DNA of 64,000 bases. Origin: a virus. Positions within the stretch are counted from its first letter, which is position 1; the number at the start of each line of letters is the position of its first letter. The stretch spans positions 105,748 to 169,747 of the IMG/VR virus record IMGVR_UViG_3300022696_000071. The stretch is one strand, 5' to 3'. Both the position numbers and the translations under genes were made by a program. Positions 2,922-47,919 of the stretch are shown here, piece by piece. A model generated the notes under the pieces. It made no database searches, was not told the DNA's origin, and saw only the letters and a program-made list of their open reading frames with translations.

Positions 2922-3022
2922 TATATAATTTACAAAAAATTAAATTACGTTTAATGTGGGGGTTCTTGGCAATAATAATGATTATTGGTTATTACTTAAT
3001 ATATATATAGTCAATTTATAAT

Positions 3023-5717: not shown

Positions 5718-5819
5718 GACAATTCCTCCTTATTATAAGATTAATGGTTAGTAGACCGTCCAACCTCCTCAGACGATTCTACTTATTAATTAATATATAT
5801 AATAAATGGTATACTATAT

Positions 5820-7106: not shown

Positions 7107-7301
7107 TCTTTCCTCCTTTTTATATTTAAAATGGTTAATGGTTATTATTTAATATATATAGAAAAAAATAATATGTGGATATCACCTCCTTTCACATATT
7201 ATTTTTTTAATCACATTTTACCACCAACACGGTCTGACCGGAATCGGTATCGCGACCCGGTTCGCGTCAGAGAAGACGTGTAACCGTTCCCCCAACAAAA
7301 A

Positions 7302-7989: not shown

Positions 7990-8045
7990 TAATGGTTAAA
8001 ATTTAATATATATAATCACAATATATATTAAATAATAACTAATTA
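7990..8045. promoter_or_regulatory. divergent pair of promoter-like motifs (minus: TGATTATATATATTAAATTTTAACCATTAAC; plus: ACAATATATATTAAATAATAACTAATTAACC)
   Basis: Sits between the divergent genes 7347..7961 (minus) and 8075..8359 (plus). Confidence 0.45.
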
Positions 8046-8074: not shown

Positions 8075-8359
8075 ATGACAAAAAAAGAAAAACAAGAACT
8101 TATCATGAAGCTGAAAAATATTTTAGCTTTACTTGTAACAACAAGATCGGATGATATTACTGAAGATCAATTCAGTGATATCGTTCGAAAGATTGATGTA
8201 CTGGATAATATTTTTAAGAACATCATGACCAACACAGATGGTCATAGATGCGAATCGTGCTATCATCCAGTAAAAGTGGGAGAGATTATTCCCACGGTAG
8301 AGTATAATGGACTATTCCGTTATTACGGAAAATCAAAATGTATTTATTGCGAAAAATAA
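8075..8359 (+). CDS. small zinc-ribbon protein
   Basis: 94 aa. RBS AAAAGGAGA 8 nt upstream. C-terminal CxxC...CxxC. Promoter motif at about 8018-8045 and hairpin terminator at 8371-8427. Confidence 0.45.
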   Translation: MTKKEKQELIMKLKNILALLVTTRSDDITEDQFSDIVRKIDVLDNIFKNIMTNTDGHRCESCYHPVKVGEIIPTVEYNGLFRYYGKSKCIYCEK

Positions 8360-9280: not shown

Positions 9281-9466
9281 TATATATTCAAAAAATTATA
9301 CCAAAAATTTTTCCACATCCAAATAATAGCTATTGAAAACTATATATCAGAAATAAATTCTCATGGAATATAAAATTAAAGAATCTGAATATAGATATAA
9401 TAATTATATTCAGATTTCTTTCAGATTTGGTATAAGTATATATATATGTCTCTATATTGATTCAAA

Positions 9467-9614
9467 AAAATTGATCTATTAATTTCAAAAAATGGTGTAT
9501 TTTCGTTTTCAGATAGGACAGGTATATATATATATTGATTCAAAAAAGTTGATCTATCAGATATCCATTGATTCAAAAAAGTTGATCTATTGATTTCAAA
9601 AAATGGTGTATTTT
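9467..9614. repeat. iteron-like direct repeats: TTGATTCAAAAAA(A/G)TTGATCTAT x3 and TGATTTCAAAAAATGGTGTATTTTC x2
   Basis: Copies at 9467-9490, 9535-9557 and 9568-9590, with the second repeat at 9481-9504 and 9590-9614. Inside a 1.9 kb ORF-free region. Confidence 0.6.
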
Positions 9615-9932
9615 CCCAACCAGGACTGGTCCTTAAAGGTACCCTCATAAGTCGCCAAGTAAATCGAAGCTTGAAGCAATGGTATATGATGTTCATGTTT
9701 CAAGTATGCCAATCATTGAAGACCCACCCAAACATCAAAGCTTCAAGTATTTTTTTCGAAAATTTGAGTATTTACCCACTCTATCAATATGTCCTGCTAT
9801 TACCCTATTTCCATCCAAATCGCTCTCATTTCGTTTCTATGGAGATTTATTTTAAATCTATAGTGAGATATTCATAAAAAAAGATCATCCAATGTTGACG
9901 AAATGAGATAGGAATAAATGGAAATGATGTGT

Positions 9933-9975
9933 CTACTGCCTTACGGCAGATTTAGAATTCCATATATATAGTGAA
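9933..9975 (-). repeat. conserved hairpin element copy A (TTCACTATATATAT-N10-ATCTGCCGTAAGGCAGTAG as read on the minus strand)
   Basis: One of four copies (A-D) of an approximately 45-nt element: promoter-like 5' half, 10-nt spacer and a CTGYC/GRCAG stem-loop. A lies in the ORF-free region. Confidence 0.5.
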
Positions 9976-10255: not shown

Positions 10256-10285
10256 TCACTATATATATATATTAATAGATAATCA
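10256..10285 (+). promoter_or_regulatory. promoter-like motif TTCACTATATATATATATTAATAGATAATC
   Basis: Upstream of 10316..10597. Confidence 0.45.
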
Positions 10286-10315: not shown

Positions 10316-10597
10316 ATGATTACATCAATGAAGGATTTAATGTTGTGGGGTCGATTTTTCATAGTTTCAATCACTGTCATTCTGGTGATTGAGATTGCAC
10401 GTATTGTGCACCCTACATTTCTGTGGGTGCATAAATACACGATAGTGGATTGGTTGCTTAATACCAATCCACTATTCCACCAGCGTCGTCGTAACCGGAT
10501 TATTAAAGGCTTTATCCGGGAGAGAACCATCATGCAGTATGATAGGTTCTCTCGATACGGGGTTATCCGCGTATTAATTCAGAATATACGCGGATGA
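10316..10597 (+). CDS. small membrane protein
   Basis: 93 aa. RBS AAAGGAGATAAG. Promoter motif at 10256-10285. Terminator at 10607-10646. Confidence 0.4.
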   Translation: MITSMKDLMLWGRFFIVSITVILVIEIARIVHPTFLWVHKYTIVDWLLNTNPLFHQRRRNRIIKGFIRERTIMQYDRFSRYGVIRVLIQNIRG

Positions 10598-11033: not shown

Positions 11034-13004
11034 CTATTTCGTCAAAAGATTATAAATATCGTTTTCATCTCCATCTCTGAACAAATCAAATGTATTATTC
11101 ATTCCACCCTTCATATTCCCCATATTGGCCCTTATATAAGAATCCACTTTCTTTTTAAATGTATTAAACTCATTATTCATATATTCATCCAATAATGGTG
11201 CACCAAACCCATTTAACCCACGTATCAGATCAGTTGCATCTTCAGTTGGTGAATTCATTTCATTATATGTGCTATCAAAATTATCAAATGAATCTAATAC
11301 ATCCTTCCTATAATGCCTCACATAACATATAAAGCCCAAAGCCATTGCTAAATCGTCATGCAATCCAACATCAGCCTGTATCTTATTCCCTTTATCAACT
11401 AACCCACTTAATTCTAACGCTAATCTTTCTGATTTAACAATAGATGGATCTTCTATTATGTATTGATATAGAGAATCGAGTATTAATGGTCTTGTTTTAA
11501 CATTAGTAGATAGTCCTGGATAGAATTTCTTATGTCCTGTTTGTCCTCTCCACTCTCCATACATATTATACTCATATGATTCATCTCGTAATATCTCTTC
11601 TATTACTTGATTGCCATAGCTGTTGTTTTCTATGATCAGGATGGAGCGTGGATACAGTTTAGCTATATATTTGACTACAGTAGTAAAATCAAATACTGCC
11701 ATTTTCCCTTTAAACTCAGCAATTTGTTTCATATCAACAAATCTAAACACTTCTATCGTACTCCAATCACCATCCCCCAATCCACTCCCCGTATCAACCC
11801 CAATTAATACTTTAGAATCTTTATCAGTATGAGTATATCTAATGAACTCACCACCCTGTTGCGTCCAGCCGCTCTCAAACCCTTCAGAATCGTTTTCAAT
11901 GTTAACCCCTATCTTACCCCTTATCCAGCGTCTTTCAAGCGGTCTGACGTGTCTGGTGGTTTCTTGCAGCACTACAATCACATCATCATCAAATAAATTA
12001 TTACCAGATCCAACAAACTTCATCTCAAGTTCTTGATTTATCTTACGTTTATTATTCTGTAAGATTGCACACTGTTGATCATACCACTTTGGATCATTCT
12101 TGAATATCGGAATTTCAGACCAATGAATCTTATATGGTCTGAATGCAGAGAGAATAGCATCACCACCATCATCCACATTGGTAGTCAATACTGCCGAATC
12201 GGTAGTCAATACTGCCGACTTAGACGATTTATCAGCTTCTTCATTTGTCCTTCCCTCCCCCTCCCCACTCTTATCCTTTTTCCCACCTATTACATTAGAA
12301 CTCTTAGATAAATTATTGTTACTATCCAACCACAGCTTGTAATACCACTTTCCTATTCCCTGCTGACCATTCGGAGTTGATAATACGATGGTTCCATAGG
12401 GAATTCCACGCTCTTTAGCCACTTGTTGGGCATATGATAGGGTTGAACCGAGTCCAGTCCACGCTTCATCGATTTTCATAATGTGTGCAGCTTCGTCAAT
12501 TACTAGTAATCCGATAGATTTTGACCGAAAAACCGATCCTGGGTTAGACAAACTTACTGCTGTGGAGTGAAGTTGGCACCCATTTGTGGTACTAAAACTC
12601 TGAACGGACTTGTGTTTATACTGTGGTTTCAGATAGTTAGGGAGTTTGTCTACTATGTCTTCCACCTTCTTGCAAAAATCCGAGGATTCGGCGCCTGATC
12701 TACTCAGTACCCCGCTTACCAGGTTAGAATTAAAGGTACTGATATAAGCAATTATAAGTTGGCACAATGTACTAAAGCCGGTTTGTCTTGATTTGAGTAA
12801 AATCAAGTGATGATATTTAAAAAATGCACGAATGATTTCTTTTTGTGGTTCATAGAGTTTGGGTAATGTATCTCCACCAGCTAATGGTAGATAACAGCAT
12901 TCTTCCATGAATTTAATTGGATTGTTTTTATATTCTAAATACTTAGTTGCATATTTTAATGCGCTTCTTGATAATTTTTCAGTATTATCTTGTTGTATTT
13001 CCAT
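11034..13004 (-). CDS. terL: terminase large subunit (TerL): ATPase plus nuclease
   Basis: Walker A-like KSRQTGFST. Walker B LLVIDEAAH. Nuclease-domain motifs IGVDTGSGLGDGDWS and GLHDDLAMALGF. 656 aa. Contains a low-complexity K/E/S-rich insertion with an in-frame 21-bp tandem duplication. Confidence 0.85.
   Translation of the reverse strand: MEIQQDNTEKLSRSALKYATKYLEYKNNPIKFMEECCYLPLAGGDTLPKLYEPQKEIIRAFFKYHHLILLKSRQTGFSTLCQLIIAYISTFNSNLVSGVLSRSGAESSDFCKKVEDIVDKLPNYLKPQYKHKSVQSFSTTNGCQLHSTAVSLSNPGSVFRSKSIGLLVIDEAAHIMKIDEAWTGLGSTLSYAQQVAKERGIPYGTIVLSTPNGQQGIGKWYYKLWLDSNNNLSKSSNVIGGKKDKSGEGEGRTNEEADKSSKSAVLTTDSAVLTTNVDDGGDAILSAFRPYKIHWSEIPIFKNDPKWYDQQCAILQNNKRKINQELEMKFVGSGNNLFDDDVIVVLQETTRHVRPLERRWIRGKIGVNIENDSEGFESGWTQQGGEFIRYTHTDKDSKVLIGVDTGSGLGDGDWSTIEVFRFVDMKQIAEFKGKMAVFDFTTVVKYIAKLYPRSILIIENNSYGNQVIEEILRDESYEYNMYGEWRGQTGHKKFYPGLSTNVKTRPLILDSLYQYIIEDPSIVKSERLALELSGLVDKGNKIQADVGLHDDLAMALGFICYVRHYRKDVLDSFDNFDSTYNEMNSPTEDATDLIRGLNGFGAPLLDEYMNNEFNTFKKKVDSYIRANMGNMKGGMNNTFDLFRDGDENDIYNLLTK
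12181..12222 (-). repeat. in-frame 21-bp tandem duplication inside terL (GGTAGTCAATACTGCCGAATC / GGTAGTCAATACTGCCGACTT)
   Basis: Encodes SAVLTTD-SAVLTTN within a low-complexity insertion of TerL. Confidence 0.6.
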
Positions 13005-13258
13005 TTTTATTATCGTCTCTTTCTATTTTTATATATTAATATATACATATGTTATTTATATATGTATATTTACTGTCTGATGTATATACACATATTTGTC
13101 CTTCCGTGTATTGTTTCTCTTCCTCCCCTTTCACCCCCCATTTTTTTATTTATACATATATATACGTATAAATCATTCTTTTTCTTCTTTTATTTTTTTT
13201 ATATATTAATAGATATAATATAATCTTAATATAAATTAATCATAAAAAATTTAGGGGG

Positions 13259-13471
13259 ATGTGTATTATGACGACAATGGAAAATTTGTACATTTCCATG
13301 TACAAAAAGAACAGGGAAGAGTTTATCAGTGGCGTAGATGATTTAGCTATAGTGGCTGAATCTTATATGTCATTAGTTGATAGTGGGATAAATACTCGGC
13401 AAGATTTACATATTTGTCGAGTGATAATTAGATGGTTTAAAGAGAAGAGAGTGTGTAATCATTCTCTTTAA
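13259..13471 (+). CDS. small hypothetical protein (early-type gene)
   Basis: 70 aa. RBS TTAGGGGGAT. Promoter motif at 13200-13225. Terminator at 13486-13520. Confidence 0.4.
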   Translation: MCIMTTMENLYISMYKKNREEFISGVDDLAIVAESYMSLVDSGINTRQDLHICRVIIRWFKEKRVCNHSL

Positions 13472-13485
13472 ACTATTTAAAAAAA

Positions 13486-13520
13486 AGAGATATATATATG
13501 TACGTATATCTCTTTTTTTA
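13486..13520 (+). terminator. rho-independent terminator (AGAGATATATATATG/CGTATATCTCT plus T-run)
   Basis: Inverted repeat followed by TTTTTTT directly after the stop of 13259..13471. Confidence 0.55.
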
Positions 13521-13530
13521 TTGTTATATA

Positions 13531-13556
13531 TTCAGCTATATATATTAAATAATAAC
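13531..13556 (+). promoter_or_regulatory. conserved promoter-like motif TTCAGCTATATATATTAAATAATAAC
   Basis: Identical 26-mer at 14418-14443. Lies about 15-40 nt upstream of the RBS of 13570..13869. Confidence 0.5.
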
Positions 13557-13569
13557 AGATAAATATAAA

Positions 13570-13869
13570 TTGTATTTTTTCTATATATATATAATAATGG
13601 TTTGTGTGAAAAGAAAGGAGATATATAAAGAGATGAATAATTTAAGTGATAGTGTAAATACTATTTCTTCTTATATGATGACTGATATAGAGTTCTTAAT
13701 TATAGTCATTATTATTATTTTAATAATATTATTATTATTTGTTTATGTATTAATAAGTTATAAGATTAAAGAATATAAGATGAATAAGTATTTGAAATGG
13801 TATTATAGTAATAGACAGTATGGTGATGGATATAATAACAATAATCAACAGAAGAAGAGAAAGATATAA
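13570..13869 (+). CDS. small membrane protein
   Basis: 99 aa with a central TM helix (IIVIIIILIILLLFVYVLI). Promoter motif at 13531-13556. Confidence 0.4.
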   Translation: MYFFYIYIIMVCVKRKEIYKEMNNLSDSVNTISSYMMTDIEFLIIVIIIILIILLLFVYVLISYKIKEYKMNKYLKWYYSNRQYGDGYNNNNQQKKRKI

Positions 13870-13974
13870 AGAGATGAATATAATAGGAGAAGAGTGAAAG
13901 AATTACTTAAGGAACTCCCTCCTATTCCGTCTTCTAAGTTTGTGTAATCTGTAAATATATAAAGAAAAGGAGAT

Positions 13975-14331
13975 TTGATTATGTTTATGAGTATAGATAA
14001 GAATATGTATGAAGTTATTGATGAAATATTAAATAATGGACTCATGTTCAACACTGTTGTAACAAATCGAATAAAAAAGATGATCATCGTCAATGATTCA
14101 TCAAATTCGTTTAAACATATGTATTCAATGGAGTATGAGTATGAAGCAAAATGGAAAAACGAAGTGATGACATTGAGAATATTTCGGGATGATAATGAGC
14201 ATGTAGATTTATTCATACTTGTCATATATAAATCGCCTATCAGAAAAACAAATGTCAAAATTGAAAAGTGTGACGATACAATGAAAAACTTGAAAAAACA
14301 AGTTGAGTATATATGTAACAAAATGAAATAA
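13975..14331 (+). CDS. hypothetical protein
   Basis: 118 aa. RBS AAAGGAGATTTGATTATG. Terminator at 14348-14399. Confidence 0.45.
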   Translation: MIMFMSIDKNMYEVIDEILNNGLMFNTVVTNRIKKMIIVNDSSNSFKHMYSMEYEYEAKWKNEVMTLRIFRDDNEHVDLFILVIYKSPIRKTNVKIEKCDDTMKNLKKQVEYICNKMK

Positions 14332-14417
14332 TATTCAACTTTATATAAAAAAAGAGAGCTATATATTTATATGGTTTATATATAATTCTCTTTTTTTTGT
14401 TATATATTCATTATATA

Positions 14418-14443
14418 TTCAGCTATATATATTAAATAATAAC
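14418..14443 (+). promoter_or_regulatory. conserved promoter-like motif (identical copy of the 13531-13556 26-mer)
   Basis: Upstream of the small TM gene 14475..14633. Confidence 0.5.
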
Positions 14444-14474
14444 TAATAACCATTTATAAAAAAGGAGAATTAAT

Positions 14475-14633
14475 CATGACGACCTTCGTAGTAGTTTGTT
14501 TAGTTTTAATGGTAATAAGTGGTTTAATGTGGCTTGTTACAGAAGTCATGTTAAACCGGGATGCGGCAAGAGATGAAATAGCCGCAAAAAATCAACAGAA
14601 AAAGAAAATTGATGAGTTGTATGGAAGAAAATA
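14475..14633 (+). CDS. small single-TM protein (not in the supplied ORF track)
   Basis: Hand translation: MTTFVVVCLVLMVISGLMWLVTEVMLNRDAARDEIAAKNQQKKKIDELYGRK. RBS AAAAAGGAGAATTAATCATG. Promoter motif at 14418-14443 (identical 26-mer to 13531-13556). Terminator at 14650-14695. The antisense track ORF 14551..14790 is probably spurious. Confidence 0.45.
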
Positions 14634-14767
14634 AAAACTCATTGATTTTCAAAAAAAAGATTGCACAAGCGTCAACGTGTAATCTTTTTTTTGTTATATA
14701 TATTAAATAGTATACTAATTGATTTATGTTTAAATTTATATGATGAATTAGGAGAAATAGGAGAATT

Positions 14768-15403
14768 ATGATGAATTTTTTAGATGTCAATCGTAAAAGA
14801 GAAATTAATTTTTTAGACGCTGTTATGCTTATTATTGATACGATGATTAAATTTGATAATCATTTAATATTTCAGTTTCATAAATTAATTGGTCTTTTGA
14901 AAAATGATTATGAAAATAGTAACGTTAAATCATTTTTTAAAAATATAAATAAATATGGAGTCGTAACTACATGTATATATTCAACATATAATAGTGATTG
15001 TAAAAAATTTCAATGTAAATTAAATGAACTTGATTTTAAAATATCTAAAATATTTGTATTAAAACGTAAAAATTATGAAATCATAATTGCAGAGAATGCA
15101 GTAACTAAAAACTCACATATATCGGTGGTGGGAGGAGGAGGATTGATGAAAATGGATAATGTTATGCTTGAAGCGAAAAAGACGTTAGAGATACTTAACT
15201 CGTTGAAAAAGAGACTAAGTGCTGATTTGGGAGATGATCGAATCATTATTAGATATAAGTGTATATCTGATAATAAATATTCTGTCGATCACATATCGGA
15301 AGATGAATATAAAAAGTTGTTTGAGAAACATGAACTCGTTTTGATGTCAACTCCAGAAAAATTACAATCATATATAAAGTCTACGATATGGGTGGAGGAT
15401 TAG
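14768..15403 (+). CDS. hypothetical protein
   Basis: 211 aa. RBS AGGAGAAATAGGAGAATTATG. Promoter motif at 14693-14715. Confidence 0.45.
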   Translation: MMNFLDVNRKREINFLDAVMLIIDTMIKFDNHLIFQFHKLIGLLKNDYENSNVKSFFKNINKYGVVTTCIYSTYNSDCKKFQCKLNELDFKISKIFVLKRKNYEIIIAENAVTKNSHISVVGGGGLMKMDNVMLEAKKTLEILNSLKKRLSADLGDDRIIIRYKCISDNKYSVDHISEDEYKKLFEKHELVLMSTPEKLQSYIKSTIWVED

Positions 15404-15407
15404 AGAA

Positions 15408-15770
15408 ATGATTAATTGTGGTGTCAATATTGAAAATAATAGATATGTATCATCGTTTATTGGTAAAGTTAGCAGACATGATGATTATAAGATCTTCATG
15501 AATGCTGTAATTAATATCTATAAAATGAGACGTTCCAGAAGGAAATATAATGGAACATTGATAACTCATAGAACCATGTTATGTATGGGTGTATATAATG
15601 GTGTTGTCGTGACTGAATATATTGTTACGATTGATAATTTTGAAGATGAAAAAACAGTTCTTCATGTTGTCAGTTATAATGGTGATGATATAGAATTTCA
15701 TATAACCACATCAGTGTATTCAGTTAAACGTGAAGTTGAATCAGTGTATGGGAAGATATATTGGGGATGA
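15408..15770 (+). CDS. hypothetical protein
   Basis: 120 aa. RBS TGGGTGGAGGATTAGAGAAATG. Operonic with the neighbouring genes. Confidence 0.45.
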   Translation: MINCGVNIENNRYVSSFIGKVSRHDDYKIFMNAVINIYKMRRSRRKYNGTLITHRTMLCMGVYNGVVVTEYIVTIDNFEDEKTVLHVVSYNGDDIEFHITTSVYSVKREVESVYGKIYWG

Positions 15771-15779
15771 GGAATCATT

Positions 15780-15983
15780 ATGGAGAAAGAAGATGTTTCA
15801 ATTATAGTTGGTTCCAGACATGATGTTATTAATATAAAACATTATATGTACGGAACTGAAGAATGGAAAATGAGACAAAAACAAATAAAAATGCGTACTA
15901 AAGAGTTGAATAAACAGTACGCGAATCATGAATTTCGTAATACGATTGTTGCGAAATTCATAATGAAAGAGTTTATTCTGTAA
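15780..15983 (+). CDS. small hypothetical protein
   Basis: 67 aa. RBS-like GGGGATGAGGAATCATTATG. Confidence 0.35.
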   Translation: MEKEDVSIIVGSRHDVINIKHYMYGTEEWKMRQKQIKMRTKELNKQYANHEFRNTIVAKFIMKEFIL

Positions 15984-16114
15984 TCGAACTCGTTCATAAT
16001 TAAAAAAGATGATTGATTAGAGTTATATATCACTCATCTTTTTTTATTTAATTCCATCATATATATTAATATATAACCATTAACCAGTTTAACCATATAT
16101 AAAGGAGGAATGGT

Positions 16115-16552
16115 ATGATGATGGAAATTGTTGGGAACATGGTTGAAAATGTAGTTTTTAATCTTCTCGAACTCAAAGAGGAGATGAAACAAAGAATGGA
16201 GGCTGGTAAAGTCGCCATTTTAATGCAGAAGATCGACGTTGTCTCTTCTACGAGTTCATCGAATGATGGGGACGTATTCGATGGGCTTAACATTGACGTT
16301 CTCAAGACGCCGGAAAAGATAATGGAAAAGTACGGCGTCGAGTTCCCCAACTATCCCATAGTCGAATCCACCGACGACTATGGGCTGGTGTGGTGGACCG
16401 ATGTGTCTAAGTTGGATCAGGATGAGATTATGAAGTTTAAGATCATTCTGATCGCCATCAATAACGTTAAAGATGGCTCCACTGCCGAAACCACTTGGCT
16501 TCGGCAGTGGCACAAATGGGTTGAGCGGAATGGGCAATGCGATCCGATTTAG
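16115..16552 (+). CDS. hypothetical acidic protein
   Basis: 145 aa. RBS ATAAAGGAGGAATGGTATG. Promoter motif at 16064-16090. Confidence 0.45.
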   Translation: MMMEIVGNMVENVVFNLLELKEEMKQRMEAGKVAILMQKIDVVSSTSSSNDGDVFDGLNIDVLKTPEKIMEKYGVEFPNYPIVESTDDYGLVWWTDVSKLDQDEIMKFKIILIAINNVKDGSTAETTWLRQWHKWVERNGQCDPI

Positions 16553-16609
16553 CATTGCCCGAAAATTAGCTACGATGATTGTATATATCGTGGCTAATTT
16601 TTTATACGA

Positions 16610-16634
16610 TTCACTATATATATTAAGTAATAAC
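16610..16634 (+). promoter_or_regulatory. conserved promoter-like motif TTCACTATATATATTAAGTAATAAC
   Basis: Identical 25-mer at 17410-17434. Upstream of mini-gene 16670..16834. Confidence 0.5.
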
Positions 16635-16669
16635 ATAGTAAATAAATTATCAAGAAAGGAGGTGAGAAC

Positions 16670-16834
16670 TATGTTAAGCGGTTTCTTTAAAGCCGCTGGT
16701 TGGGTGGCAGGGGCAACCTTGTCCGCCTACGCCAGCGTGAAACTCGTCGAGCACTGTGAGAGAGTGCTCGACGAGAATCGGGAAATGCGGAAGCGTCTGG
16801 GGATCGAAGATCCCCTCAAGACTTCCACTTCCAA
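16670..16834 (+). CDS. small Gly/Ala-rich amphipathic peptide (GC-rich mini-gene)
   Basis: MLSGFFKAAGWVAGATLSAYAS... (55 aa). RBS AAAGGAGGTGAGAACTATG. Promoter motif at 16610-16634. Hairpin terminator at about 16848-16900. Internal start of track ORF 16473..16841. Confidence 0.4.
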
Positions 16835-16955
16835 AAAATAACCTCTACGAAAAAAAGGACCCAGATATATTGTCTGTATATGTATCTGTGGTTCTTTTTT
16901 TGTTATATATTAAATTATAACTTTAAACCATTTTATTTATATAGGAGATGTTATT

Positions 16956-17285
16956 ATGGGTAAAATCTCTATTAAAACGTTTTGGATCGCATTTTGGACA
17001 GTTGCAACTATATCGGTAGGAAGTATCTTGATCTGGTTTGTAATTCAGATGGGATTTCAATTGTATATTAATAAAGAATATAACAATCCTCCCATCACAT
17101 CATCATCATCAGTTAAAAATGATAAAACAATAATGTTCGACAATGGGATTGAAATGAATGTTGGATGTAATAAAGAATATGGCATTATTTGTTTTTTCAG
17201 TCATTCAAACACGTTGCAGTACGCCTCATGTGTACCTCTCACCTCAGATTCAAATCAAAAATTATACTCATTATGTTCAGAATGA
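16956..17285 (+). CDS. small membrane protein
   Basis: 109 aa. N-terminal TM (FWIAFWTVATISVGSILIWFVI). RBS ATAGGAGATG. Promoter motif at 16902-16921. Perfect hairpin terminator at 17295-17335. Confidence 0.45.
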   Translation: MGKISIKTFWIAFWTVATISVGSILIWFVIQMGFQLYINKEYNNPPITSSSSVKNDKTIMFDNGIEMNVGCNKEYGIICFFSHSNTLQYASCVPLTSDSNQKLYSLCSE

Positions 17286-17294
17286 GTATAAAAA

Positions 17295-17335
17295 AGAGAA
17301 AATTGGTGAAATATATGCCAATTTTCTCTTTTTTT
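17295..17335 (+). terminator. rho-independent terminator (perfect 12-bp stem AGAGAAAATTGG/CCAATTTTCTCT plus T7)
   Basis: Directly after the stop of 16956..17285. Confidence 0.6.
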
Positions 17336-17351
17336 GTTATTTTTTACCATA

Positions 17352-17397
17352 TTTCACTATATATATAAAATTGTAATATCTGCCGTAGGCAGTAGAG
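17352..17397 (+). repeat. conserved hairpin element copy C (TTTCACTATATATATAAAATTGTAATATCTGCCGTAGGCAGTAGAG)
   Basis: Plus orientation. Immediately upstream of the promoter motif at 17410. Confidence 0.5.
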
Positions 17398-17409
17398 ACG
17401 TTTTTCAAA

Positions 17410-17434
17410 TTCACTATATATATTAAGTAATAAC
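17410..17434 (+). promoter_or_regulatory. conserved promoter-like motif (identical copy of the 16610-16634 25-mer)
   Basis: Upstream of mini-gene 17471..17638. Confidence 0.5.
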
Positions 17435-17470
17435 ACAACCAATAACTCATTAACTTAAAAGGAGGAAGTT

Positions 17471-17638
17471 ATGAACATGAATGGATGGGCGAAATTCGGT
17501 ATGGCGGTAGGTGCAGTTGTGGTTGCGAATATAGCGTGCGCCGCCGCAGCAGGGACGTGGAACATGGTGAAAAACGCGGCCACTGCTGCTCGCGAGCAGC
17601 AGGAATCGATCGATGCGGCAAAGAAGGCGGCTAACTAA
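17471..17638 (+). CDS. small Gly/Ala-rich peptide (GC-rich mini-gene)
   Basis: Hand translation: MNMNGWAKFGMAVGAVVVANIACAAAAGTWNMVKNAATAAREQQESIDAAKKAAN. RBS AAAAGGAGGAAGTTATG. Promoter motif at 17410-17434. A 19-bp-stem inverted-repeat terminator at 17641-17714. Track ORF 17450..17674 (minus) is antisense to this and is rejected. Confidence 0.45.
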   Translation: MNMNGWAKFGMAVGAVVVANIACAAAAGTWNMVKNAATAAREQQESIDAAKKAAN

Positions 17639-17640
17639 CC

Positions 17641-17714
17641 CCCAACCCCAACCTATCTCACTCTCAGCCGGCATGCATCCCGCTTACGCCCAAGAGTGAG
17701 ATAGGTTGGGGTTA
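17641..17714 (+). terminator. long inverted repeat (about 19-bp stem CCCAACCTATCTCACTCT ... AGAGTGAGATAGGTTGGGG); probable terminator
   Basis: Immediately 3' of mini-gene 17471..17638. Confidence 0.5.
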
Positions 17715-17750
17715 ACTTAAAGTTAAATTTTTTGTTCATGATTTTATTTT

Positions 17751-17774
17751 TTTCTATATATATTAAATTATAAC
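17751..17774 (+). promoter_or_regulatory. promoter-like motif TTTCTATATATATTAAATTATAAC
   Basis: Upstream of 17811..18107. A near-identical copy at 22977-23000 lies upstream of 23028..23399. Confidence 0.45.
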
Positions 17775-17810
17775 GAACAAAAATTTATTAACTATTTTAA
17801 AAGGAGAGTT

Positions 17811-18107
17811 ATGATGTTTATTTCGATTATTCTTTCTGTTGTGTTAATGCTTAAATTTTTTATTTTCGTTCGATATAGATTATCATGGAATGGATCATAT
17901 ATCATATCATGGAAAATAGTATATAAATCGATTTTAAATATAAGAAATAGACATAAATTAAAATTGATAAAGAGTGGAAATAATTACATAACATTAAGAA
18001 ATAGCATGATAAAAGATTTAAATTCATGTAAAACATGGGAAGATCGTAATAGTGTAGGTGACGCGATTAATGCTCTCGATTATGTTTATAAACTTGAAAA
18101 AATATAA
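17811..18107 (+). CDS. small membrane protein
   Basis: 98 aa. N-terminal TM. RBS AAAGGAGAGTTATG. Promoter motif at 17751-17774. Confidence 0.4.
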   Translation: MMFISIILSVVLMLKFFIFVRYRLSWNGSYIISWKIVYKSILNIRNRHKLKLIKSGNNYITLRNSMIKDLNSCKTWEDRNSVGDAINALDYVYKLEKI

Positions 18108-18121
18108 AGGGTAATTCTATT

Positions 18122-18400
18122 ATGTGTCTTAATCGTATGAAAGAAGTCAGTGATGATTATTTGATTCGATTGGTACGATATAATGAATCTAATAATATTT
18201 TCATTGGATGGAAATCATTTGTTATTGATGAATCAACGGGAAAATTAACATGCCCGCGTATTATAATAATTATCCTGAGCCTCCTCTACTATACAACAAA
18301 TGGGTTTATTCTGGTGCATCTGTTGATAAGGGATATGAGGAGAGAGGGTGGCATGTGTTTACTGAATACAAAGATGCCAATTCACTTACTAAAACTATGA
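18122..18400 (+). CDS. hypothetical protein; the 3' part overlaps the next ORF in another frame
   Basis: 92-aa ORF. Only the first ~45 codons look protein-like. The downstream ORF 18250..18594 begins inside it. Confidence 0.3.
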   Translation: MCLNRMKEVSDDYLIRLVRYNESNNIFIGWKSFVIDESTGKLTCPRIIIIILSLLYYTTNGFILVHLLIRDMRREGGMCLLNTKMPIHLLKL

Positions 18401-18594
18401 ATTATAATAGTGTTAGTAAATACTATTATCATGGAACTCGACCAATACTATTTCGAAAAGAAGACATAATAGTAGTTGGTAAAAATATGGTTGATAAAAG
18501 TGTCATTGCATTATCTCATATGAAAATTTTAAGAATGAGTGAAATAAATGAATTTAAAATAGCATCTGAAATAAGAAGGATAGATAACTTATGA
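18250..18594 (+). CDS. hypothetical protein
   Basis: 114 aa. Protein-like composition throughout. GGAAAA purine run upstream of the ATG. Confidence 0.4.
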   Translation: MPAYYNNYPEPPLLYNKWVYSGASVDKGYEERGWHVFTEYKDANSLTKTMNYNSVSKYYYHGTRPILFRKEDIIVVGKNMVDKSVIALSHMKILRMSEINEFKIASEIRRIDNL

Positions 18595-18751
18595 ACTGGG
18601 AGGATAACTGGAAGACAACAGAATAATTATATCCATAAATGGTAATGGGATACTGAGTTTGTTTTATATGAATGTTTGGGGATATAATTACGAATGCGTA
18701 ATTAAGAAAAGAAGAATTATCGAAAGTTAGCAAATATGTATTTTAAACCCA

Positions 18752-19075
18752 TTGGAGACTATTATTATGTTTTATTATGCGTGTTTAATTTGTGATGAAG
18801 CTGTTCCAAGACCAGAACCGATACCTGAATGGTCAGCAGTTGTTTGTGATAAATGTCATGAAGATATGTGTGATATTGATCCAAATGACATGAAAATCAT
18901 TGTTGAATCGAAAAGTTTCGTTAAGTGTCGGAAGACTGTGATTATTAGAAATCATATTATTCCGAAACTCAGTGAAGATGGAGAAACAATTGTTTCCCAA
19001 ATATGTGGAAATCGATCTGTAAATGGATTCTCCGTTTCAAATGATCGATGGAAACAATGGATGGAGAAGATTTAA
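18752..19075 (+). CDS. zinc-finger protein
   Basis: CLICDE...CDKCHEDMC motif. 107 aa. Upstream RBS is weak. Confidence 0.4.
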   Translation: METIIMFYYACLICDEAVPRPEPIPEWSAVVCDKCHEDMCDIDPNDMKIIVESKSFVKCRKTVIIRNHIIPKLSEDGETIVSQICGNRSVNGFSVSNDRWKQWMEKI

Positions 19076-19133
19076 CATATATGACCACATAGATCATTAT
19101 AATATGGTCTATGTGGTCTGAAAGGAACTGAAA

Positions 19134-19646
19134 ATGGATTCTTTTAATGAAATTGAATGTATTAATATTGATAGTGATTTAAAACCGGCATTAATTCATA
19201 TCTATGCGATATTAAGAAACGATTTCAGAAGTCATTATGGTTTTGATTTACCAAGAACAGAACGAGAATGTGAAACTATTTTTGGTTCGATTGGTTTGGC
19301 GTATATTCGAATCAAAAGAGAAATAACAAATTATGCAAATTTCAATATAATTGATTTTACAAGACTTATATTCATATATATAAAATGGCGAACGTATGGT
19401 GGAACGCTTGTCATAAATAAAATTCGTCTTATTTGGGATAGAAACGTAAGAGATGCACCAATTATAATAACTGGTTATCGTGGTAATTCTTTGATAATAA
19501 ATATATATGGATATGATTTCTTGAGAGTATTTGGTTTCGATCACGAAGAAAATTTAGATGGGATATCACAATTTGTTGTTAATGATCATGATCTTACAGT
19601 AAAAACAATAGAAGAAATTAAAAAGAATTCACGTCACGTTGTATAA
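19134..19646 (+). CDS. hypothetical protein
   Basis: 170 aa. RBS-like GAAAGGAACTGAAAATG. Confidence 0.4.
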   Translation: MDSFNEIECINIDSDLKPALIHIYAILRNDFRSHYGFDLPRTERECETIFGSIGLAYIRIKREITNYANFNIIDFTRLIFIYIKWRTYGGTLVINKIRLIWDRNVRDAPIIITGYRGNSLIINIYGYDFLRVFGFDHEENLDGISQFVVNDHDLTVKTIEEIKKNSRHVV

Positions 19647-19666
19647 ACCATTATAAATAAGGAGAT

Positions 19667-19978
19667 ATGGTTATGATTAGTGGAAGACCATCGCATCCAG
19701 GACAAATATTAGTAGAATTTATCAATAATATTAAAGGGTTAACTGTTGATAAATTATCTGATGTCACCGAGATTGAAGAAAGATATTTATTGGAGTTAAT
19801 GATTGAAAAAGAATCAATGACTCCATATGTGGCGCAGGTATTTTCCAGGGTATTTTCGACAACACCTTCTTATTGGATAGATCTTCAATCTAAACTCGAT
19901 CTGTGGGAAAACCATGTTAAACATGAACAGTTTTTAAGTGGGTTAGAATCATTGGTTGATACAAATATAGAACAATAA
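19667..19978 (+). CDS. HigA/VapI-like HTH antitoxin-family protein (XRE-type)
   Basis: HPGQILVEFI...LTVDKLSDVTEIEERYLLELMIEKESMTPYVAQVFSRVFSTTPSYWIDLQ. This matches the HigA antidote-family pattern (HPGE-IL...WLNLQ). RBS AAGGAGATATGGTTATG. Confidence 0.55.
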   Translation: MVMISGRPSHPGQILVEFINNIKGLTVDKLSDVTEIEERYLLELMIEKESMTPYVAQVFSRVFSTTPSYWIDLQSKLDLWENHVKHEQFLSGLESLVDTNIEQ

Positions 19979-20064
19979 TATTTATTTAAAAATTGGCTAA
20001 ATAATAATCACATAGATTAGAATATCATTTTAATCTATGTGATTATTTGAAAGGAGATATGGTT

Positions 20065-21507
20065 ATGTGTGGAATAGGATGTGTTTGGTTCAGAGAAAGT
20101 GTTGATGTGGAAATTTTGGAAAAAATGCTGGAAGCAACTGAAAAAAGGGGAAAAGATGCATTTGGATATGCAATAATACGATATGATAAAACTGAAGATG
20201 ATTATGTTTTATTTGATATAAATCGATATGGTAAATCTTATAGTGAAATCAAACAAAATATCAATCTTTTTACAGTATTAAAAGTTGGAGATATAATTAT
20301 ATGGAATAATAGAGCAAAACCAATGACTGAATTTTCATCTGTAGATGGAGATGATAGAACAATTCAACCGATATGGTACAGAGATGAAGGGATCATTATG
20401 GTTCATAATGGTGTTGTATCGAATGAAGATGAAAAATTTAAAAGAAGAACAAAAATAGATTCTGAATTTTTCATTCATAGATATTTAAAAAATGGAAGAA
20501 ATATTAAAAAGACAGCAGAAGAAATGATTGGTGGATCTGCTTATATATACGTTGATCTAAGAAGAGATATACTTGGTGTTGTAAGAGATTTCAGACCATT
20601 GGGGAAAGCATATAAGAAGGGTGTTGGTTATTTTGTAATGACTGATACTGATGAATTCTATAATGTCTTTGGTGATATGGATGTGGCTATATGGGAAAAT
20701 TTCTATTATAGCAATATACAACAATTTACTACAAATGAGGTAGATTTAAATTCTGGTCTAATTAACAGAAAAGAATTTGAACCAAATTATATATCATCTC
20801 TTCCAGAACAAGATCCAAATAAAGTACTTGTAATGTCATCTGGTGGAGTTGATTCTTCTGTTGCTGCATGTGTTGCTGCAAAATTATTGAGAAAAGAAGT
20901 TACACTTGTTCACTTTGATATTAAACAAAAGAATAATCCAGGTGAAATTCGTGCAGTTAATTACTTAAGAGAATTTCTAAGATGTAGACTCGATTATGTT
21001 GATTTACGATGGCTTGGATCATATGGAAAAAGTGTATTAACAGATAATCAATTAAAAGTTCCAAGTGGGTCAGTTAAATCAAATTTGAAAAATACAGTAT
21101 GTTGGGTGCCAGCAAGAAATCTTATAATGTTATCATGTTTGATGGGTGTTGCTGAAGCTATAGGTGCAAGTGAAATATATAATGGTTTTACTCAAGAAGA
21201 AGGCACGGTTTACAATGACAATTCAACATCATTTTTCAATGCAATGAATTATGTGTCTGATTTTGGTACTCTTAAACGACCAAAAGTAAAAACCATTCTT
21301 GGGAATCTGATGAAGCCAGAAGTTATTAAACTTGGATGGTATTTTGGATTAGATTTCAGTCAATTGTGGTCATGCGATACATATAATGAAAAAACTGGTA
21401 AAGAATGCGGTGAATGTGGTGCGTGTACGCTTAAGGCTTTAGCGTTAGAACATGCTAAACAATTAGACAGACCACCAGAAGAAATAATAAATAGGTTGAA
21501 ATATTGA
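20065..21507 (+). CDS. Gat-QueC: class-II glutamine amidotransferase domain fused to a QueC-like PP-loop ATP pyrophosphatase (7-deazaguanine pathway)
   Basis: N-terminal MCGIGCVW (Ntn Cys nucleophile). SGGVDSSVAA PP-loop (SGGxDS). C-terminal CDTY...CGECGACTLK Zn motif typical of QueC. The track starts at TTG 20047. ATG at 20065 has better RBS spacing (AAGGAG at 20051-56). Confidence 0.75.
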   Translation: MCGIGCVWFRESVDVEILEKMLEATEKRGKDAFGYAIIRYDKTEDDYVLFDINRYGKSYSEIKQNINLFTVLKVGDIIIWNNRAKPMTEFSSVDGDDRTIQPIWYRDEGIIMVHNGVVSNEDEKFKRRTKIDSEFFIHRYLKNGRNIKKTAEEMIGGSAYIYVDLRRDILGVVRDFRPLGKAYKKGVGYFVMTDTDEFYNVFGDMDVAIWENFYYSNIQQFTTNEVDLNSGLINRKEFEPNYISSLPEQDPNKVLVMSSGGVDSSVAACVAAKLLRKEVTLVHFDIKQKNNPGEIRAVNYLREFLRCRLDYVDLRWLGSYGKSVLTDNQLKVPSGSVKSNLKNTVCWVPARNLIMLSCLMGVAEAIGASEIYNGFTQEEGTVYNDNSTSFFNAMNYVSDFGTLKRPKVKTILGNLMKPEVIKLGWYFGLDFSQLWSCDTYNEKTGKECGECGACTLKALALEHAKQLDRPPEEIINRLKY

Positions 21508-21609
21508 AATGGGATTATTGGTAATTCACTGAAATGTACGATAAGATTTAATTATATATATTAATTAATAATCAATAATCATTTAACCATATATAAAGGA
21601 GGAAATATT

Positions 21610-21840
21610 ATGGTTACGTCTAAAAGAGAGTCGTGGAATCAGGGTGGCGTTTTTCACGCCGCTTCCACGATTTCAATTGGTGGTTCCACAACATCTGGTT
21701 ATGGGACCGCCGCCTCAATCAATGGCCGAGTATACGTACATGTATACTCGACTCCAACCAACAAAAATAGGCGGGAGTTCTATAACCGCCTTAACTCGGA
21801 ATTGAGATGGGCGAGACAAATGACAACGCCCATCATGTAG
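21610..21840 (+). CDS. small hypothetical protein (GC-richer)
   Basis: 76 aa. RBS TATAAAGGAGGAAATATTATG. Promoter motif at 21551-21575. Confidence 0.4.
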   Translation: MVTSKRESWNQGGVFHAASTISIGGSTTSGYGTAASINGRVYVHVYSTPTNKNRREFYNRLNSELRWARQMTTPIM

Positions 21841-21928
21841 CCAAAAAGCCATGCATACACTAAGCGAGTATCATTCAAGTATGCATGGCTTTGCCCGATT
21901 TAATATTTTTTATCAAAAAGGAAATAAA

Positions 21929-22375
21929 ATGACTGATATAGAAACAAATGAAAAAATTGGATTTGATTTAGATGGTGTTATTTGTTTTGAACCAGCAGAT
22001 CTGTGGCAGAAATTTGTATTTAATGCAGAAGATGGTGTAAAATATCGGCATGAACAACCCGTATGTTATAGACCAATGGTGAAGGGGCATATTATAACGG
22101 GTAGAAGAATTGACGATGAACAAATCACATATGATTGGTTATCTATGAATGATATTGAATTTATAAATGTTCATTTTGGACTAAATCATTATATGCCTCA
22201 AATTCTTCTTCATAAAGCTGATATGATAGACCAACTCGATTTAGATATTTATGTCGAAAGTTGTAGTTATATCACAATGTGTTTAATGAGAATGATCAAT
22301 TCAAATTGCAGAATTGTATTGCCTGACAGTTCAATTGTAAGAAACTATTTAAAACTTGAATATAAATTATCGTAA
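21929..22375 (+). CDS. HAD-superfamily phosphatase or nucleotidase-like protein
   Basis: HAD motif I FDLDGVI near the N-terminus. Internal ATG at 21929 is preceded by AAAAAGGAAAT. The track ORF starts at 21851. Confidence 0.5.
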   Translation: MTDIETNEKIGFDLDGVICFEPADLWQKFVFNAEDGVKYRHEQPVCYRPMVKGHIITGRRIDDEQITYDWLSMNDIEFINVHFGLNHYMPQILLHKADMIDQLDLDIYVESCSYITMCLMRMINSNCRIVLPDSSIVRNYLKLEYKLS

Positions 22376-22386
22376 AAAAAGGAGAG

Positions 22387-22623
22387 ATGATGGAGAGAAA
22401 AGTAGATAGTGTCAATATTGTCAGTAAAATAATAAATGAAAATGGTAAACGAATAGTTGTATATCACCCCATTGTAGATGGAAGAGAACTTCCGATGTAT
22501 TCAGAGAATCCAGACGTAGCTCTTCTTGCTGGTCTTGGATACAAATACGATAATGGGTTAAGTTCAGACTTTACCAAGTATGCATGTCGTATGCTTGGTA
22601 TAAACAGTAAATGGGCAGAGTAA
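22387..22623 (+). CDS. hypothetical protein
   Basis: 78 aa. RBS AAAAAGGAGAGATGATG. Hairpin terminator at 22646-22690. Confidence 0.4.
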   Translation: MMERKVDSVNIVSKIINENGKRIVVYHPIVDGRELPMYSENPDVALLAGLGYKYDNGLSSDFTKYACRMLGINSKWAE

Positions 22624-22645
22624 AGTTTGCCCTTTATGTCATGTA

Positions 22646-22690
22646 AAAAAATCTTATTAAACGCTGTCATTTAATAAGATTTTTTTATTA
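22646..22690 (+). terminator. hairpin terminator (AAATCTTATTAAA...TTTAATAAGATTT plus T-run)
   Basis: After the stop of 22387..22623. Confidence 0.5.
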
Positions 22691-22694
22691 AAAT

Positions 22695-22721
22695 TCACTA
22701 TATATATATTAATAGATAACC
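22695..22721 (+). promoter_or_regulatory. promoter-like motif TTCACTATATATATATTAATAGATAAC
   Basis: Upstream of 22757..22927. Same family. Confidence 0.45.
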
Positions 22722-22756
22722 AATAACCTATTTAATCCAAAAGGAAGGAGGGCGCA

Positions 22757-22927
22757 TATGCCTTACCATAGGAGAGACGATATAAGTTGTTGGTCCTGTC
22801 GTAAAGACGGGACCAACGATTGCCCGAATGGTCATCATTCGGGCAATTATTTTAACGGGCAAGATTGGTGCCACGCCTGGGCACCGATCCGCCGCGAAGA
22901 AACCCGGGAAGAGTCCGCCGAGTAGAC
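22757..22927 (+). CDS. small Cys/His-rich peptide (GC-rich mini-gene, not in the track)
   Basis: Hand translation: MPYHRRDDISCWSCRKDGTNDCPNGHHSGNYFNGQDWCHAWAPIRREETREESAE. RBS AAGGAAGGAGGG. Promoter motif at 22695-22721. Hairpin plus T-run at about 22941-22985. The antisense track ORF 22728..22949 is rejected. Confidence 0.4.
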
Positions 22928-23027
22928 TCTTCCCACAACCCCCCATCAAGTCAGTATGATTGGTGGGGGTTTCTTTTTTTCTATATATATTAAATTATAA
23001 GTATTTGAATTCGTTTTAATTTTTTAT

Positions 23028-23399
23028 TTGAAAGGATATAATATGAGAATGTGGATGATTGATCCAAAGAAATTATGTCGTAAACACTTACTTGGGGAGC
23101 ATGGCGAAATACATAAACATCGTCATAATTTTGTTAAGCATCATCGTATCGATGGTAGACTATTACCCATAGTTCAAATACAACCAGCAGACATGAGTAA
23201 GAGACATGATGAACTGGCTGAAGAAATGTTAAGAAGGGGATATAATCATCAATCTCCTTATGACCAACCAGATATTTCTTATTTGGCAGAATGGAAACAA
23301 CAGTCGAAAGTTGATCTATTAATAAGTGAAAAAGACTTATGTAAACGATGTAAACAATGTAGAGAACTAATTATGGGAGAGGAAAACAATGATAAATGA
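23028..23399 (+). CDS. pyrimidine-dimer DNA glycosylase-like protein (T4 endonuclease V / DenV family)
   Basis: N-terminal MIDPKKLCRKHLLGEHGEIH resembles the L-x2-HLMAEYREL signature of T4 DenV. 123 aa. Promoter motif at 22977-23000. Confidence 0.45.
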   Translation: MKGYNMRMWMIDPKKLCRKHLLGEHGEIHKHRHNFVKHHRIDGRLLPIVQIQPADMSKRHDELAEEMLRRGYNHQSPYDQPDISYLAEWKQQSKVDLLISEKDLCKRCKQCRELIMGEENNDK

Positions 23400-27435: not shown

Positions 27436-27663
27436 TTATTCTAAGCCCATGATTTCTTTCATTGTCATAAATTTCATGGGTTCAGAGTTAGTATTATCAT
27501 ATTTTTTTATTTTTTTATCTTCTTCTATTTTATTTTTTATATTATCTATCTTTTTCATTATTATTATTTGGTTATGTATTATTTCATCTATTTCTTTTCT
27601 TATATTATGCGTCATTATTTTGAGTTTCCTCTTTACATTCTTCCGACAACTCATAATTATCAT
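27436..27663 (-). CDS. small Lys-rich protein
   Basis: 75 aa. Overlaps the 3' end of the upstream ORF. Confidence 0.3.
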   Translation of the reverse strand: MIIMSCRKNVKRKLKIMTHNIRKEIDEIIHNQIIIMKKIDNIKNKIEEDKKIKKYDNTNSEPMKFMTMKEIMGLE

Positions 27664-47902: not shown

Positions 47903-47919
47903 TATAATTTTTTCCTTTT

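Follow-up and report, generated by a model that had tools for sequence, protein, structure and literature searches.

An array of AT-rich, probable promoter elements ahead of small terminated genes in an uncultured jumbo phage with an unsplit multisubunit RNA polymerase

Jumbo phages that encode their own RNA polymerase mark their early genes in a characteristic way: a review of the field states that every one of them carries a conserved AT-rich element of about 10 nucleotides (nt) at about -10 of early genes (PMC7598289). In AR9 the early consensus, AAATATATATTAT-(6N)-G+1, was defined by differential RNA sequencing (dRNA-seq) and primer extension and was assigned to the virion polymerase (PMC5312081), and in both phiKZ and AR9 the non-virion polymerase genes lie within early operons (PMC13282480; AR9 annotation). 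The particles of YerA41 contain both its polymerase, a single bacterial-like set, and a sigma factor (PMC7354516), which shows that early promoters can be read by a phage enzyme even if the phage has no second polymerase. Here we describe a stretch of 64 kb (the window) read out of the 201-kb genome of an uncultured jumbo phage known from a metagenome only (IMG/VR record IMGVR_UViG_3300022696_000071, positions 105,748 to 169,747), in which a family of near-identical AT-rich elements, denominated class I sites, stands ahead of small genes and short operons. These sites are very likely promoters, and we hold with moderate confidence that they are read by a phage-encoded polymerase. The phage has no close cultured relative, since a megablast of 13000-23100 against 50,697 phage records gave no match and the best identity of a cultured phage to the polymerase beta subunit of the window is 35% (tblastn). 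The window has a G+C content of about 29% and strong ribosome-binding sites of the AGGAGG type.

The exact core of the class I motif, TATATATTAA, occurs 28 times in the window, against 3.1 copies expected and a maximum of 7 in shuffles. With up to three mismatches allowed, the 18-mer TATATATTAANTAATAAC gave 34 matches (5.0 expected) and the 25-mer of the original prediction gave 7 (0.00 expected). Defining a strong class I site as one scoring at least 19.5 bits with an iterated weight matrix, we found 26 of them in the window, and a Markov-shuffled window gives about one match above 12 bits. All 26 lie outside gene calls, despite 87% of the window being coding by our heuristic calls (binomial P about 8e-24), and 24 of them face a gene start on the same strand within 120 nt downstream. 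From the start of the core, the ribosome-binding site is at a median distance of 44 nt and the start codon at one of 55 nt.

The class I consensus is (c)TA-TATATATTAA-aTwATAAC, a conserved block of 20 consecutive nt in the information profile, consisting of 12 nearly invariant A/T positions, a looser triplet and then ATAAC. Nothing is conserved upstream of the block in this profile, including both possible -35 positions, and downstream a purine is conserved at core positions +16/+17, in agreement with the spacing in AR9. TTCAC, which had initially been placed in the general consensus, does not belong there: it occurs as a prefix (TTCAC/CACTATA) at only 6 of the 26 sites. The leaders that follow the block are 25-35 nt long, and about half of them start with AACCAtTAACCAttt; AACCA is found in 12 of 26 against a background of 5%, for example at 7120-7140 on the minus strand and at 16078-16100 on the plus strand. 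A common leader motif has also been reported for the early leaders of AR9 (PMC5312081).

The plus-strand block at 13200-23005 holds 12 strong sites and a weaker copy at 17360, and comprises 12 predicted transcription units with about 27 genes; seven of the units are monocistronic, with products of 52-145 residues. The original prediction had counted more than 15 copies in this block, a number that holds for the window as a whole only, and had given almost every small gene a copy of its own, which was too strong a statement: a single promoter-like site (17757) stands ahead of about eight genes, up to a QueC-like gene ending at 21507. Individual termination, by the same account a property of these mini-genes, is real. 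A strict scan (a single hairpin of -6.5 kcal/mol or lower, flush with at least six T) found 21 plus-strand and 14 minus-strand terminators, where a shuffled strand gives 2-8, and eight of the plus-strand ones lie at 13.4-22.7 kb, each 3-82 nt ahead of a class I site; most have the form A-run, hairpin, T-run and score on the opposite strand too. An earlier, loose scan had done no better than shuffles. The picture of individually terminated mini-genes is valid for about ten units, the seven monocistronic ones included.

Read from left to right, the block opens with the weakest of the strong sites by the weight matrix (13198-13217, 19.8 bits), before 13259/13298-13471. An intrinsic terminator at 13482-13519 (A-run, hairpin and T7, bidirectional) stands 20 nt ahead of the site at 13537-13556 (TATATATATTAAATAATAAC), which precedes 13633-13869 and 13987-14331; a second, at 14350-14398, stands 28 nt ahead of the site at 14424-14443, before the mini-gene 14476-14634 (52 residues), and a third, at 14654-14692, stands 5 nt ahead of the site at 14695-14714, before 14768-15403, 15408-15770 and 15780-15983. 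Then come the terminator at 16004-16045, 15 nt from a palindromic variant of the site at 16058-16077 (before 16115-16552); that at 16561-16603, 14 nt from the site at 16615-16634 (before the mini-gene 16671-16841); that at 16854-16901, 3 nt from the site at 16902-16921 (before 16956-17285); and that at 17292-17335, followed by the weak site at 17360 and by the strong site 17417 (17415-17434), before the mini-gene 17477-17638. Beyond these, two further GC-rich hairpins with a T-run are visible. The first, long and terminator-like (17644-17735), failed the strict scan and lies before the site at 17755-17774, which heads the long unit 17811-21507. The site at 21553-21572 precedes 21610-21840, 21929-22375 and 22390-22623, and the terminator at 22647-22686 is 17 nt from the site at 22701-22720, before the mini-gene 22758-22925. 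The second of the two hairpins, CCCCCCATCA...TGATTGGTGGGGG (22935-22979), was read directly from the sequence, and a minus-strand partner of it was reported separately; it lies before the site 22984 (22982-23001), which is followed by 23043-23399, a pyrimidine-dimer glycosylase-like (denV-like) gene, and the genes after it. The exact duplications reported for this block exist and are slightly longer than claimed: 33 nt (13524-13556 = 14411-14443), including the site at 13537-13556, and 27 nt (16609-16635 = 17409-17435), including those at 16615-16634 and 17415-17434.

A composite element is present in three copies, at 17353-17399(+), 9929-9975(-) and 30255-30298(+). It consists of a degenerate promoter-like box, (C)ACTATATATAT(A/G/C), then 11-12 nt, an inverted repeat CTGyCG-n3/4-GrCAG (5 bp) and TAGAGAC; GGCAGTAGAGAC with up to two mismatches gives 6 matches against 0.85 expected. 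Possible roles of the element are those of an operator, a small RNA or a processing site.

Two strong sites on the plus strand lie to the left of the block, at 8020-8039 (before 8075-8359) and 10264-10283 (before 10316-10597), the former divergent from a minus-strand site at 7995-8014. The reverse-complement copies that the original prediction had seen ahead of four minus-strand genes are all in place, at 7158 (before 6549-7106), 8012 (7347-7961), 28042 (27605-27967) and 35684 (35253-35615). These are the sites at 7141-7160, which has the top score of all (33.2 bits) and starts 4 nt after a terminator, at 7995-8014, at 28025-28044 and at 35667-35686. Four more minus-strand sites are found at 2988-3007, before a class 3 lipase-like gene (2049-2921), at 4998-5017 (before 3980-4948), at 5782-5801 (before 5430-5717) and at 30610-30629, ahead of a short unit with a strong ribosome-binding site and small open reading frames (ORFs) that ends at a strong terminator at about 30326. 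A pair at 61788-61807 and 61834-61853, with a palindromic weight-matrix match on the plus strand (61804-61823), heads a long minus-strand array towards the polymerase genes; from 61788 down to 44540 there is no strict terminator except a weak one at 55093. The remaining site, 44514-44533, lies between the genes for beta' and beta, before a 75-codon ORF (44275-44500, apparent ATA start) and beta. ATA or ATC takes the place of ATG, GTG or TTG at normal spacing after strong ribosome-binding sites at 44500(-), at about 30568(-) and at about 51296(-), and these may be non-canonical start codons.

The multisubunit polymerase genes span 41264-50617 on the minus strand. The beta subunit (41264-44263) is compact and unsplit, with 999 residues and Pfam Rpb2 domains 3, 6 and 7; beta' is encoded in two parts, an N-terminal one (49019-50617; Pfam Rpb1 domain 2) and a C-terminal one with an intein (44540-47902; Pfam Rpb1 domain 5 and Intein_splicing; PHROG HNH endonuclease), with a homing-endonuclease-like gene between them (47920-49032, minus strand; DUF7487; PHROG homing endonuclease). 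In relatives of this phage, beta' is a single unsplit protein of 894 residues (L002) or is split differently, into 443 and 450 residues (L001). Since beta is unsplit and is far nearer to bacterial beta (E = 3e-80) than to the AR9 non-virion polymerase chain 7s00_C (E = 5e-30), the polymerase is not of the split phiKZ/AR9 type. Directly upstream of beta' lies a gene for a protein of 235-260 residues in three of three genomes (window 50634-51341(-), L001 4957-5739, L002 6502-7284); the three proteins are 28-33% identical and have a C-terminal motif HPNxDxNGxYCLGE...DCYWxP. The 235-residue protein of the window had no PDB match, Pfam family or homologue by word search, and its single-sequence AlphaFold model was unusable (predicted local distance difference test, pLDDT, 36). 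The protein may be an accessory or specificity subunit of the polymerase.

Relatives were found by an alignment-based search with beta; a search with the single beta protein gave no related loci. The metagenomes contain hundreds of beta homologues, of about 1000 residues, on contigs of 150-335 kb. One locus, L204, is the terminase neighbourhood of a 189-kb relative whose large terminase (TerL) is 46% and whose beta is 55% identical to those of the window, at DNA that cannot be aligned. It holds 8 copies of TATATATTAAA, against 0.23 expected, upstream of small genes near TerL and with the orientation and spacing seen in the window, one of them with the prefix TTTCACTA. Single copies of the core, with matching spacing to the ribosome-binding site and ATG, occur in about six further relatives (L167/L203, L123, L001, L128, L126, L129 and L205), and the copy at L203 6266 is syntenic with that at 35684 in the window. 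The sequence after the looser triplet differs by lineage, being ATAAC in the window, ATATA in L204 and ATGA in L126, L128 and L129; such variation is as would be expected around a start site. A metagenome scan with TATATATATTAANNNATAA was discarded, the matches listed including scattered single ones in unrelated AT-rich contigs and the pattern being too unspecific. Two side observations come from L204: its leaders have an ATTAAC element 8-14 nt ahead of the ribosome-binding site, and at 1632-1700 the sequence GGGGAAGTAGCTCAGTCGG, about 60 nt beyond a class I site, resembles the 5' end of a tRNA; ARAGORN reported no tRNA in L204.

A second upstream element, class II, has the consensus GGACAAAC-n-ATAAATT, more broadly GGACAAAC-n-(A/G)TAAATT. 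The 8-mer GGACAAAC occurs 7 times in the window against 1.0 expected, and on the minus strand three of the copies, each with (A/G/T)TAAA(A)TT behind it, lie 26-55 nt ahead of the genes they face: GGACAAACcATAAATT at 35204-35226 (before 33952-35193), GGACAAACtTTAAAATT at 2011-2033 (before 1040-1993) and GGACAAACtGTAAATT at 189-211 (before 3-149). Further class II positions are 28058(+), 30237(+), 13101(-) and 51351(-) in the window, and L203 7070 and 9708, L123 21956, L205 3909 and 7127, and L001 4513 in relatives. The element at 35204-35226 has an exact counterpart, GGACAAACtATAAATT, at L203 7070, before the orthologue (32% identical) of the 33952-35193 product; this 16-mer also stands ahead of the TerL operon of L203, and variants of it are found in L123 and L205. 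Class II-like elements lie ahead of the polymerase operon in the window (51351), L001 (4513) and L002 (about 6202). Over the roughly 78 loci of the wider family GGACAAAC is not enriched (44 copies, against 35 +/- 21), and conservation of both motifs is limited to the closer relatives, with beta at least about 47% identical. The 413-residue product of a class II gene had no PHROG, PDB or phage tblastn match, which leaves the label 'late' without functional support. Two conserved and unrelated upstream elements point to two promoter specificities; we regard class II as a candidate promoter class, and it most likely marks the other temporal class.

On balance we favour the reading that the phage's own transcription system uses class I as its main set of promoters, and that these are not host sigma-A promoters. 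This agrees with the original prediction of a dedicated phage polymerase, and it draws on the polymerase genes in the window, the missing -35, the sigma-70-type matches discussed below, the 8 nt shared with the AR9 early consensus and the presence of the core in a relative, the enzyme itself being inferred. The class is probably the early one: the genes behind it (ORFan mini-genes, DNA-modification and repair genes, the denV-like gene and part of the polymerase cluster) suggest that it is active from the start of infection. The layout seen in the sequence is, in order, a terminator hairpin and T-run, 3-30 nt, the class I block, a leader, a strong AGGAGG-type ribosome-binding site and a small gene or short operon up to the next terminator. 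If AR9, phiKZ and phiR1-37 are a guide, the AT-rich core would lie at about -10, where it would be melted and recognised by a phage-encoded multisubunit RNA polymerase, and transcription would begin, at +1, with the purine that is conserved in ATAAC, 6-7 nt past the core. A class active from the start of infection needs a reading enzyme that arrives with the DNA, which might be either a separate virion polymerase encoded outside the window, as in AR9 and phiKZ, or the polymerase of 41-50 kb itself, packaged into the particles as has been reported for YerA41.

Several observations weigh against this reading. For this phage the terms 'promoter' and 'early', and likewise the position of +1, are deduced from sequence. 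The analogy with AR9 crosses lineages, the polymerase here being unsplit and nearer to bacterial beta; the resemblance amounts to an A/T string of 8 nt in two genomes of about 28% G+C, and the AR9 promoters fall below the threshold of the weight matrix built from the window. In the wider family of about 78 loci (beta 36-41% identical) the core TATATATTAA is not enriched (45 copies, against 47 in permuted controls). The 64-kb window gave no second beta or beta', and neither did the flanks, up to 10 kb from the first copy, in about 85 relatives. Among some 80 window proteins scanned against Pfam and PHROG there was no sigma factor, gp55-like protein or single-subunit polymerase, of which the absent sigma factor counts here. 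Finally, it is a class II-like element, not a class I site, that lies directly ahead of the polymerase operon, which blurs the assignment of the classes to early and late.

Could the class I sites be early promoters of the unmodified host sigma-A holoenzyme, with TATATT as the -10 in a context so AT-rich that no -35 is needed? This would be plausible if the host were a Firmicute or Mollicute-like bacterium of very high A+T content. TATATT (core positions 3-8) retains A-11 and T-7 of TATAAT, and the start would fall in ATAAC; just upstream, at six sites, TTCACT matches TTGACA in four of six positions, and one of these sites was caught by a sigma-70 scan as TTCACT-17-GATAAT. In SPO1, classically, small and individually terminated early genes are transcribed by the host polymerase. 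The early-promoter stem-loops (PeSLs) of T4 likewise drive small terminated early genes with the host enzyme (PMC2839356). We nevertheless consider this explanation unlikely, for the following reasons: (i) over the whole set the -35 carries no information for either candidate -10, and there is no TG of an extended -10; (ii) 12 consecutive positions are conserved above 90%, far beyond what a sigma-A hexamer needs, and the alternative -10, wATAAC, lacks the key T-7; (iii) sigma-70-type matches at 5-24 kb are not enriched (105, against 133 +/- 10 in shuffles); (iv) the phage has polymerase genes of its own; and (v) the same 11-mer is retained in relatives from other samples.

A second alternative is that the sites are read by the host core polymerase with a phage-encoded sigma-like factor. 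The late promoters of T4, with TATAAATA at -10 only, are read in this way with gp55/gp33, and the class I block has the same form, an AT-rich -10-type element without a -35. Many jumbo phages without a polymerase of their own do encode sigma factors (PMC13282480, PMC7824862). However, the window proteins include no sigma-70 family or gp55-like domain, the phage's own beta and beta' make a host core unnecessary, and, should the class be early, a factor synthesised after infection would come too late to read it; we think this mechanism distinctly improbable. That the repeats are chiefly recombination or mobility cassettes or operators, with terminator-motif junctions shuffling the mini-genes in the way proposed for the PeSLs of T4-type phages, is very improbable indeed: the exact 33-nt and 27-nt duplicates do cover the motif with its 5' flank, a terminator-plus-motif composite does sit between ORFan genes, and PeSLs are documented recombination substrates (PMC2839356, PMC4122927), but PeSLs are themselves promoters, which makes recombination an added role and not an alternative, and strict orientation and 50-60 nt to the start codons are needed by a promoter, not by recombination alone.

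Returning to a phage-encoded polymerase as the reader of class I, a bolder version can be formulated, which we put forward tentatively and regard as doubtful. The clade of 150-335 kb phages would use one compact, unsplit, bacterial-type and virion-delivered polymerase for the whole programme, switched between the TATATATTAA-type and GGACAAAC-n-ATAAATT-type classes by factors unrelated to sigma-70, and the protein of 235-260 residues encoded directly upstream of beta' is a candidate for one such specificity factor. Under this version 7-deazaguanine modification of the DNA would not affect recognition of the class I core, which is A/T-only, and the G-containing class II element could depend on the modification, by analogy with the late promoters of AR9. 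Those promoters are uracil-dependent. A modified G in the phage DNA is itself suggested by a 7-deazaguanine-type gene set, made up of a QueC-like/glutamine amidotransferase fusion (20047-21507, plus strand) and GTP cyclohydrolase I (40577-41248, minus strand). QueC, radical SAM and phosphoribosyltransferase genes are also found in L002 and L203. Neither G nor C occurs in the class I core.

The large terminase gene of the window is at 11034-13004 on the minus strand and a helicase gene at 61855-63561. ThiF/E1-like proteins are encoded at 55249-55863(-) and 56580-57593(-), and such genes are kept upstream of the polymerase genes in the clade (L001 643-1233, L002 1313-2107). An 864-residue protein (30686-33280(-)) has a major-vault-protein 'shoulder' domain (Pfam E = 2.5e-10); its homologues, 30-33% identical, come only from uncultured huge phages of 462-735 kb (LR756500, LR756501 and LR756503), and these three are absent among the tblastn matches of the window beta listed (85 of 119). 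Divergent class I units flank the segment 8430-10250, about 1.8 kb in which no ORF is convincing. It holds three copies of an iteron-like direct repeat, ATTGATTCAAAAAARTTGATCTAT, of which two 49-nt copies at 9456-9615 are 96% identical, as well as GA/CT-rich runs. The minimum of the cumulative GC skew falls near 12 kb. The segment could be a replication origin or a genome end. A tRNA scan and an Rfam scan of the window gave no match.

If our reading of class I is correct, it provides a transcription map for an uncultured clade of jumbo phages whose polymerase is unlike the phiKZ and AR9 enzymes studied so far, with 26 predicted start regions, the 12 units of the mini-gene block and a second promoter class. 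The sites would also furnish defined templates on which to test the sequence recognition of a compact, unsplit phage polymerase and to find the factor behind its specificity, and the short promoter and terminator parts could serve as orthogonal expression elements. None of this overturns what was known: conserved AT-rich early motifs are the expected signature of polymerase-encoding phages.

How, then, does the array compare with the systems already described? Promoters of the sigma-70/sigma-A type have a -35 TTGACA and a -10 TATAAT 16-18 nt apart, or a TGn extended -10, and class I differs from them in having neither -35 information nor TG. T7-type promoters are conserved over about 23 bp that end at +1 to +6, and CACTATA is the stretch from -7 to -1 in T7 and SP6. 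The same CACTATA is seen at six class I sites, upstream of the core rather than at a 3' end; a T7-like reading was rejected with only 6 of 26 sites carrying it and no single-subunit polymerase domain among the window proteins. The likeness to T4 late promoters is that of an AT-rich element at -10 only, and the difference lies in the gp55-like or sigma-like protein that was not found among the window proteins. The T4-type PeSLs come closer in layout, each being a stem-loop terminator followed by an early promoter, in near-identical copies between small ORFan genes of plastic regions (PMC2839356, PMC4122927), but they are sigma-70 promoters read by the host polymerase, and class I has no sigma-70 features. 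Nothing in our analysis ties this phage to the T4 type, and its closest relatives are uncultured jumbo phages with polymerases of their own.

Among phages with their own polymerase, the YerA41 type is alike in its one detectable bacterial-like beta/beta' set, and a single injected polymerase could read early promoters in both; beta of YerA41, GN1 and Carin-5 aligns from the same region as bacterial beta. It differs in the identity of beta, about 27% over about 55% of its length, and YerA41 itself has a sigma factor (none among the window proteins), no described promoters, a Gram-negative host and a genome of 145 kb, against 201 kb here. With regard to AR9 and phiKZ, the differences are that their polymerases are split and this one is unsplit and bacterial-like, and that they have a virion polymerase set, against the single beta/beta' set found in the 64-kb window; the flanks of the core differ from those of AR9 as well (TTAA here and TTAT there, ATAAC here and N6-G there), and, unlike those of AR9, phiKZ and phiR1-37, the units here are bracketed by terminators, most of them ending in a hairpin and T-run. 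What these three phages and ours have in common is nonetheless considerable: a highly conserved A/T-only element of about 10 nt without a -35 (PMC5312081, PMC7598289), dozens of copies per genome upstream of small operons, early in those phages and called early by inference for the window, and a conserved base at a constant distance of 6-7 nt behind the core. Polymerase genes too are preceded by such elements, as in AR9 and phiKZ; here beta follows the class I site at 44531. The resemblance to early promoters of phages with multisubunit polymerases, perceived already in the original prediction, extends with AR9 to the sequence itself, since the 8-mer ATATATTA of the class I core is contained in the AR9 early consensus and in six annotated AR9 early promoters, with different flanks. 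Taken together, these similarities and differences make it probable that the class I array is a further case of the promoter arrays known from jumbo phages with polymerases of their own, this time in a lineage whose polymerase is unusual in being unsplit.

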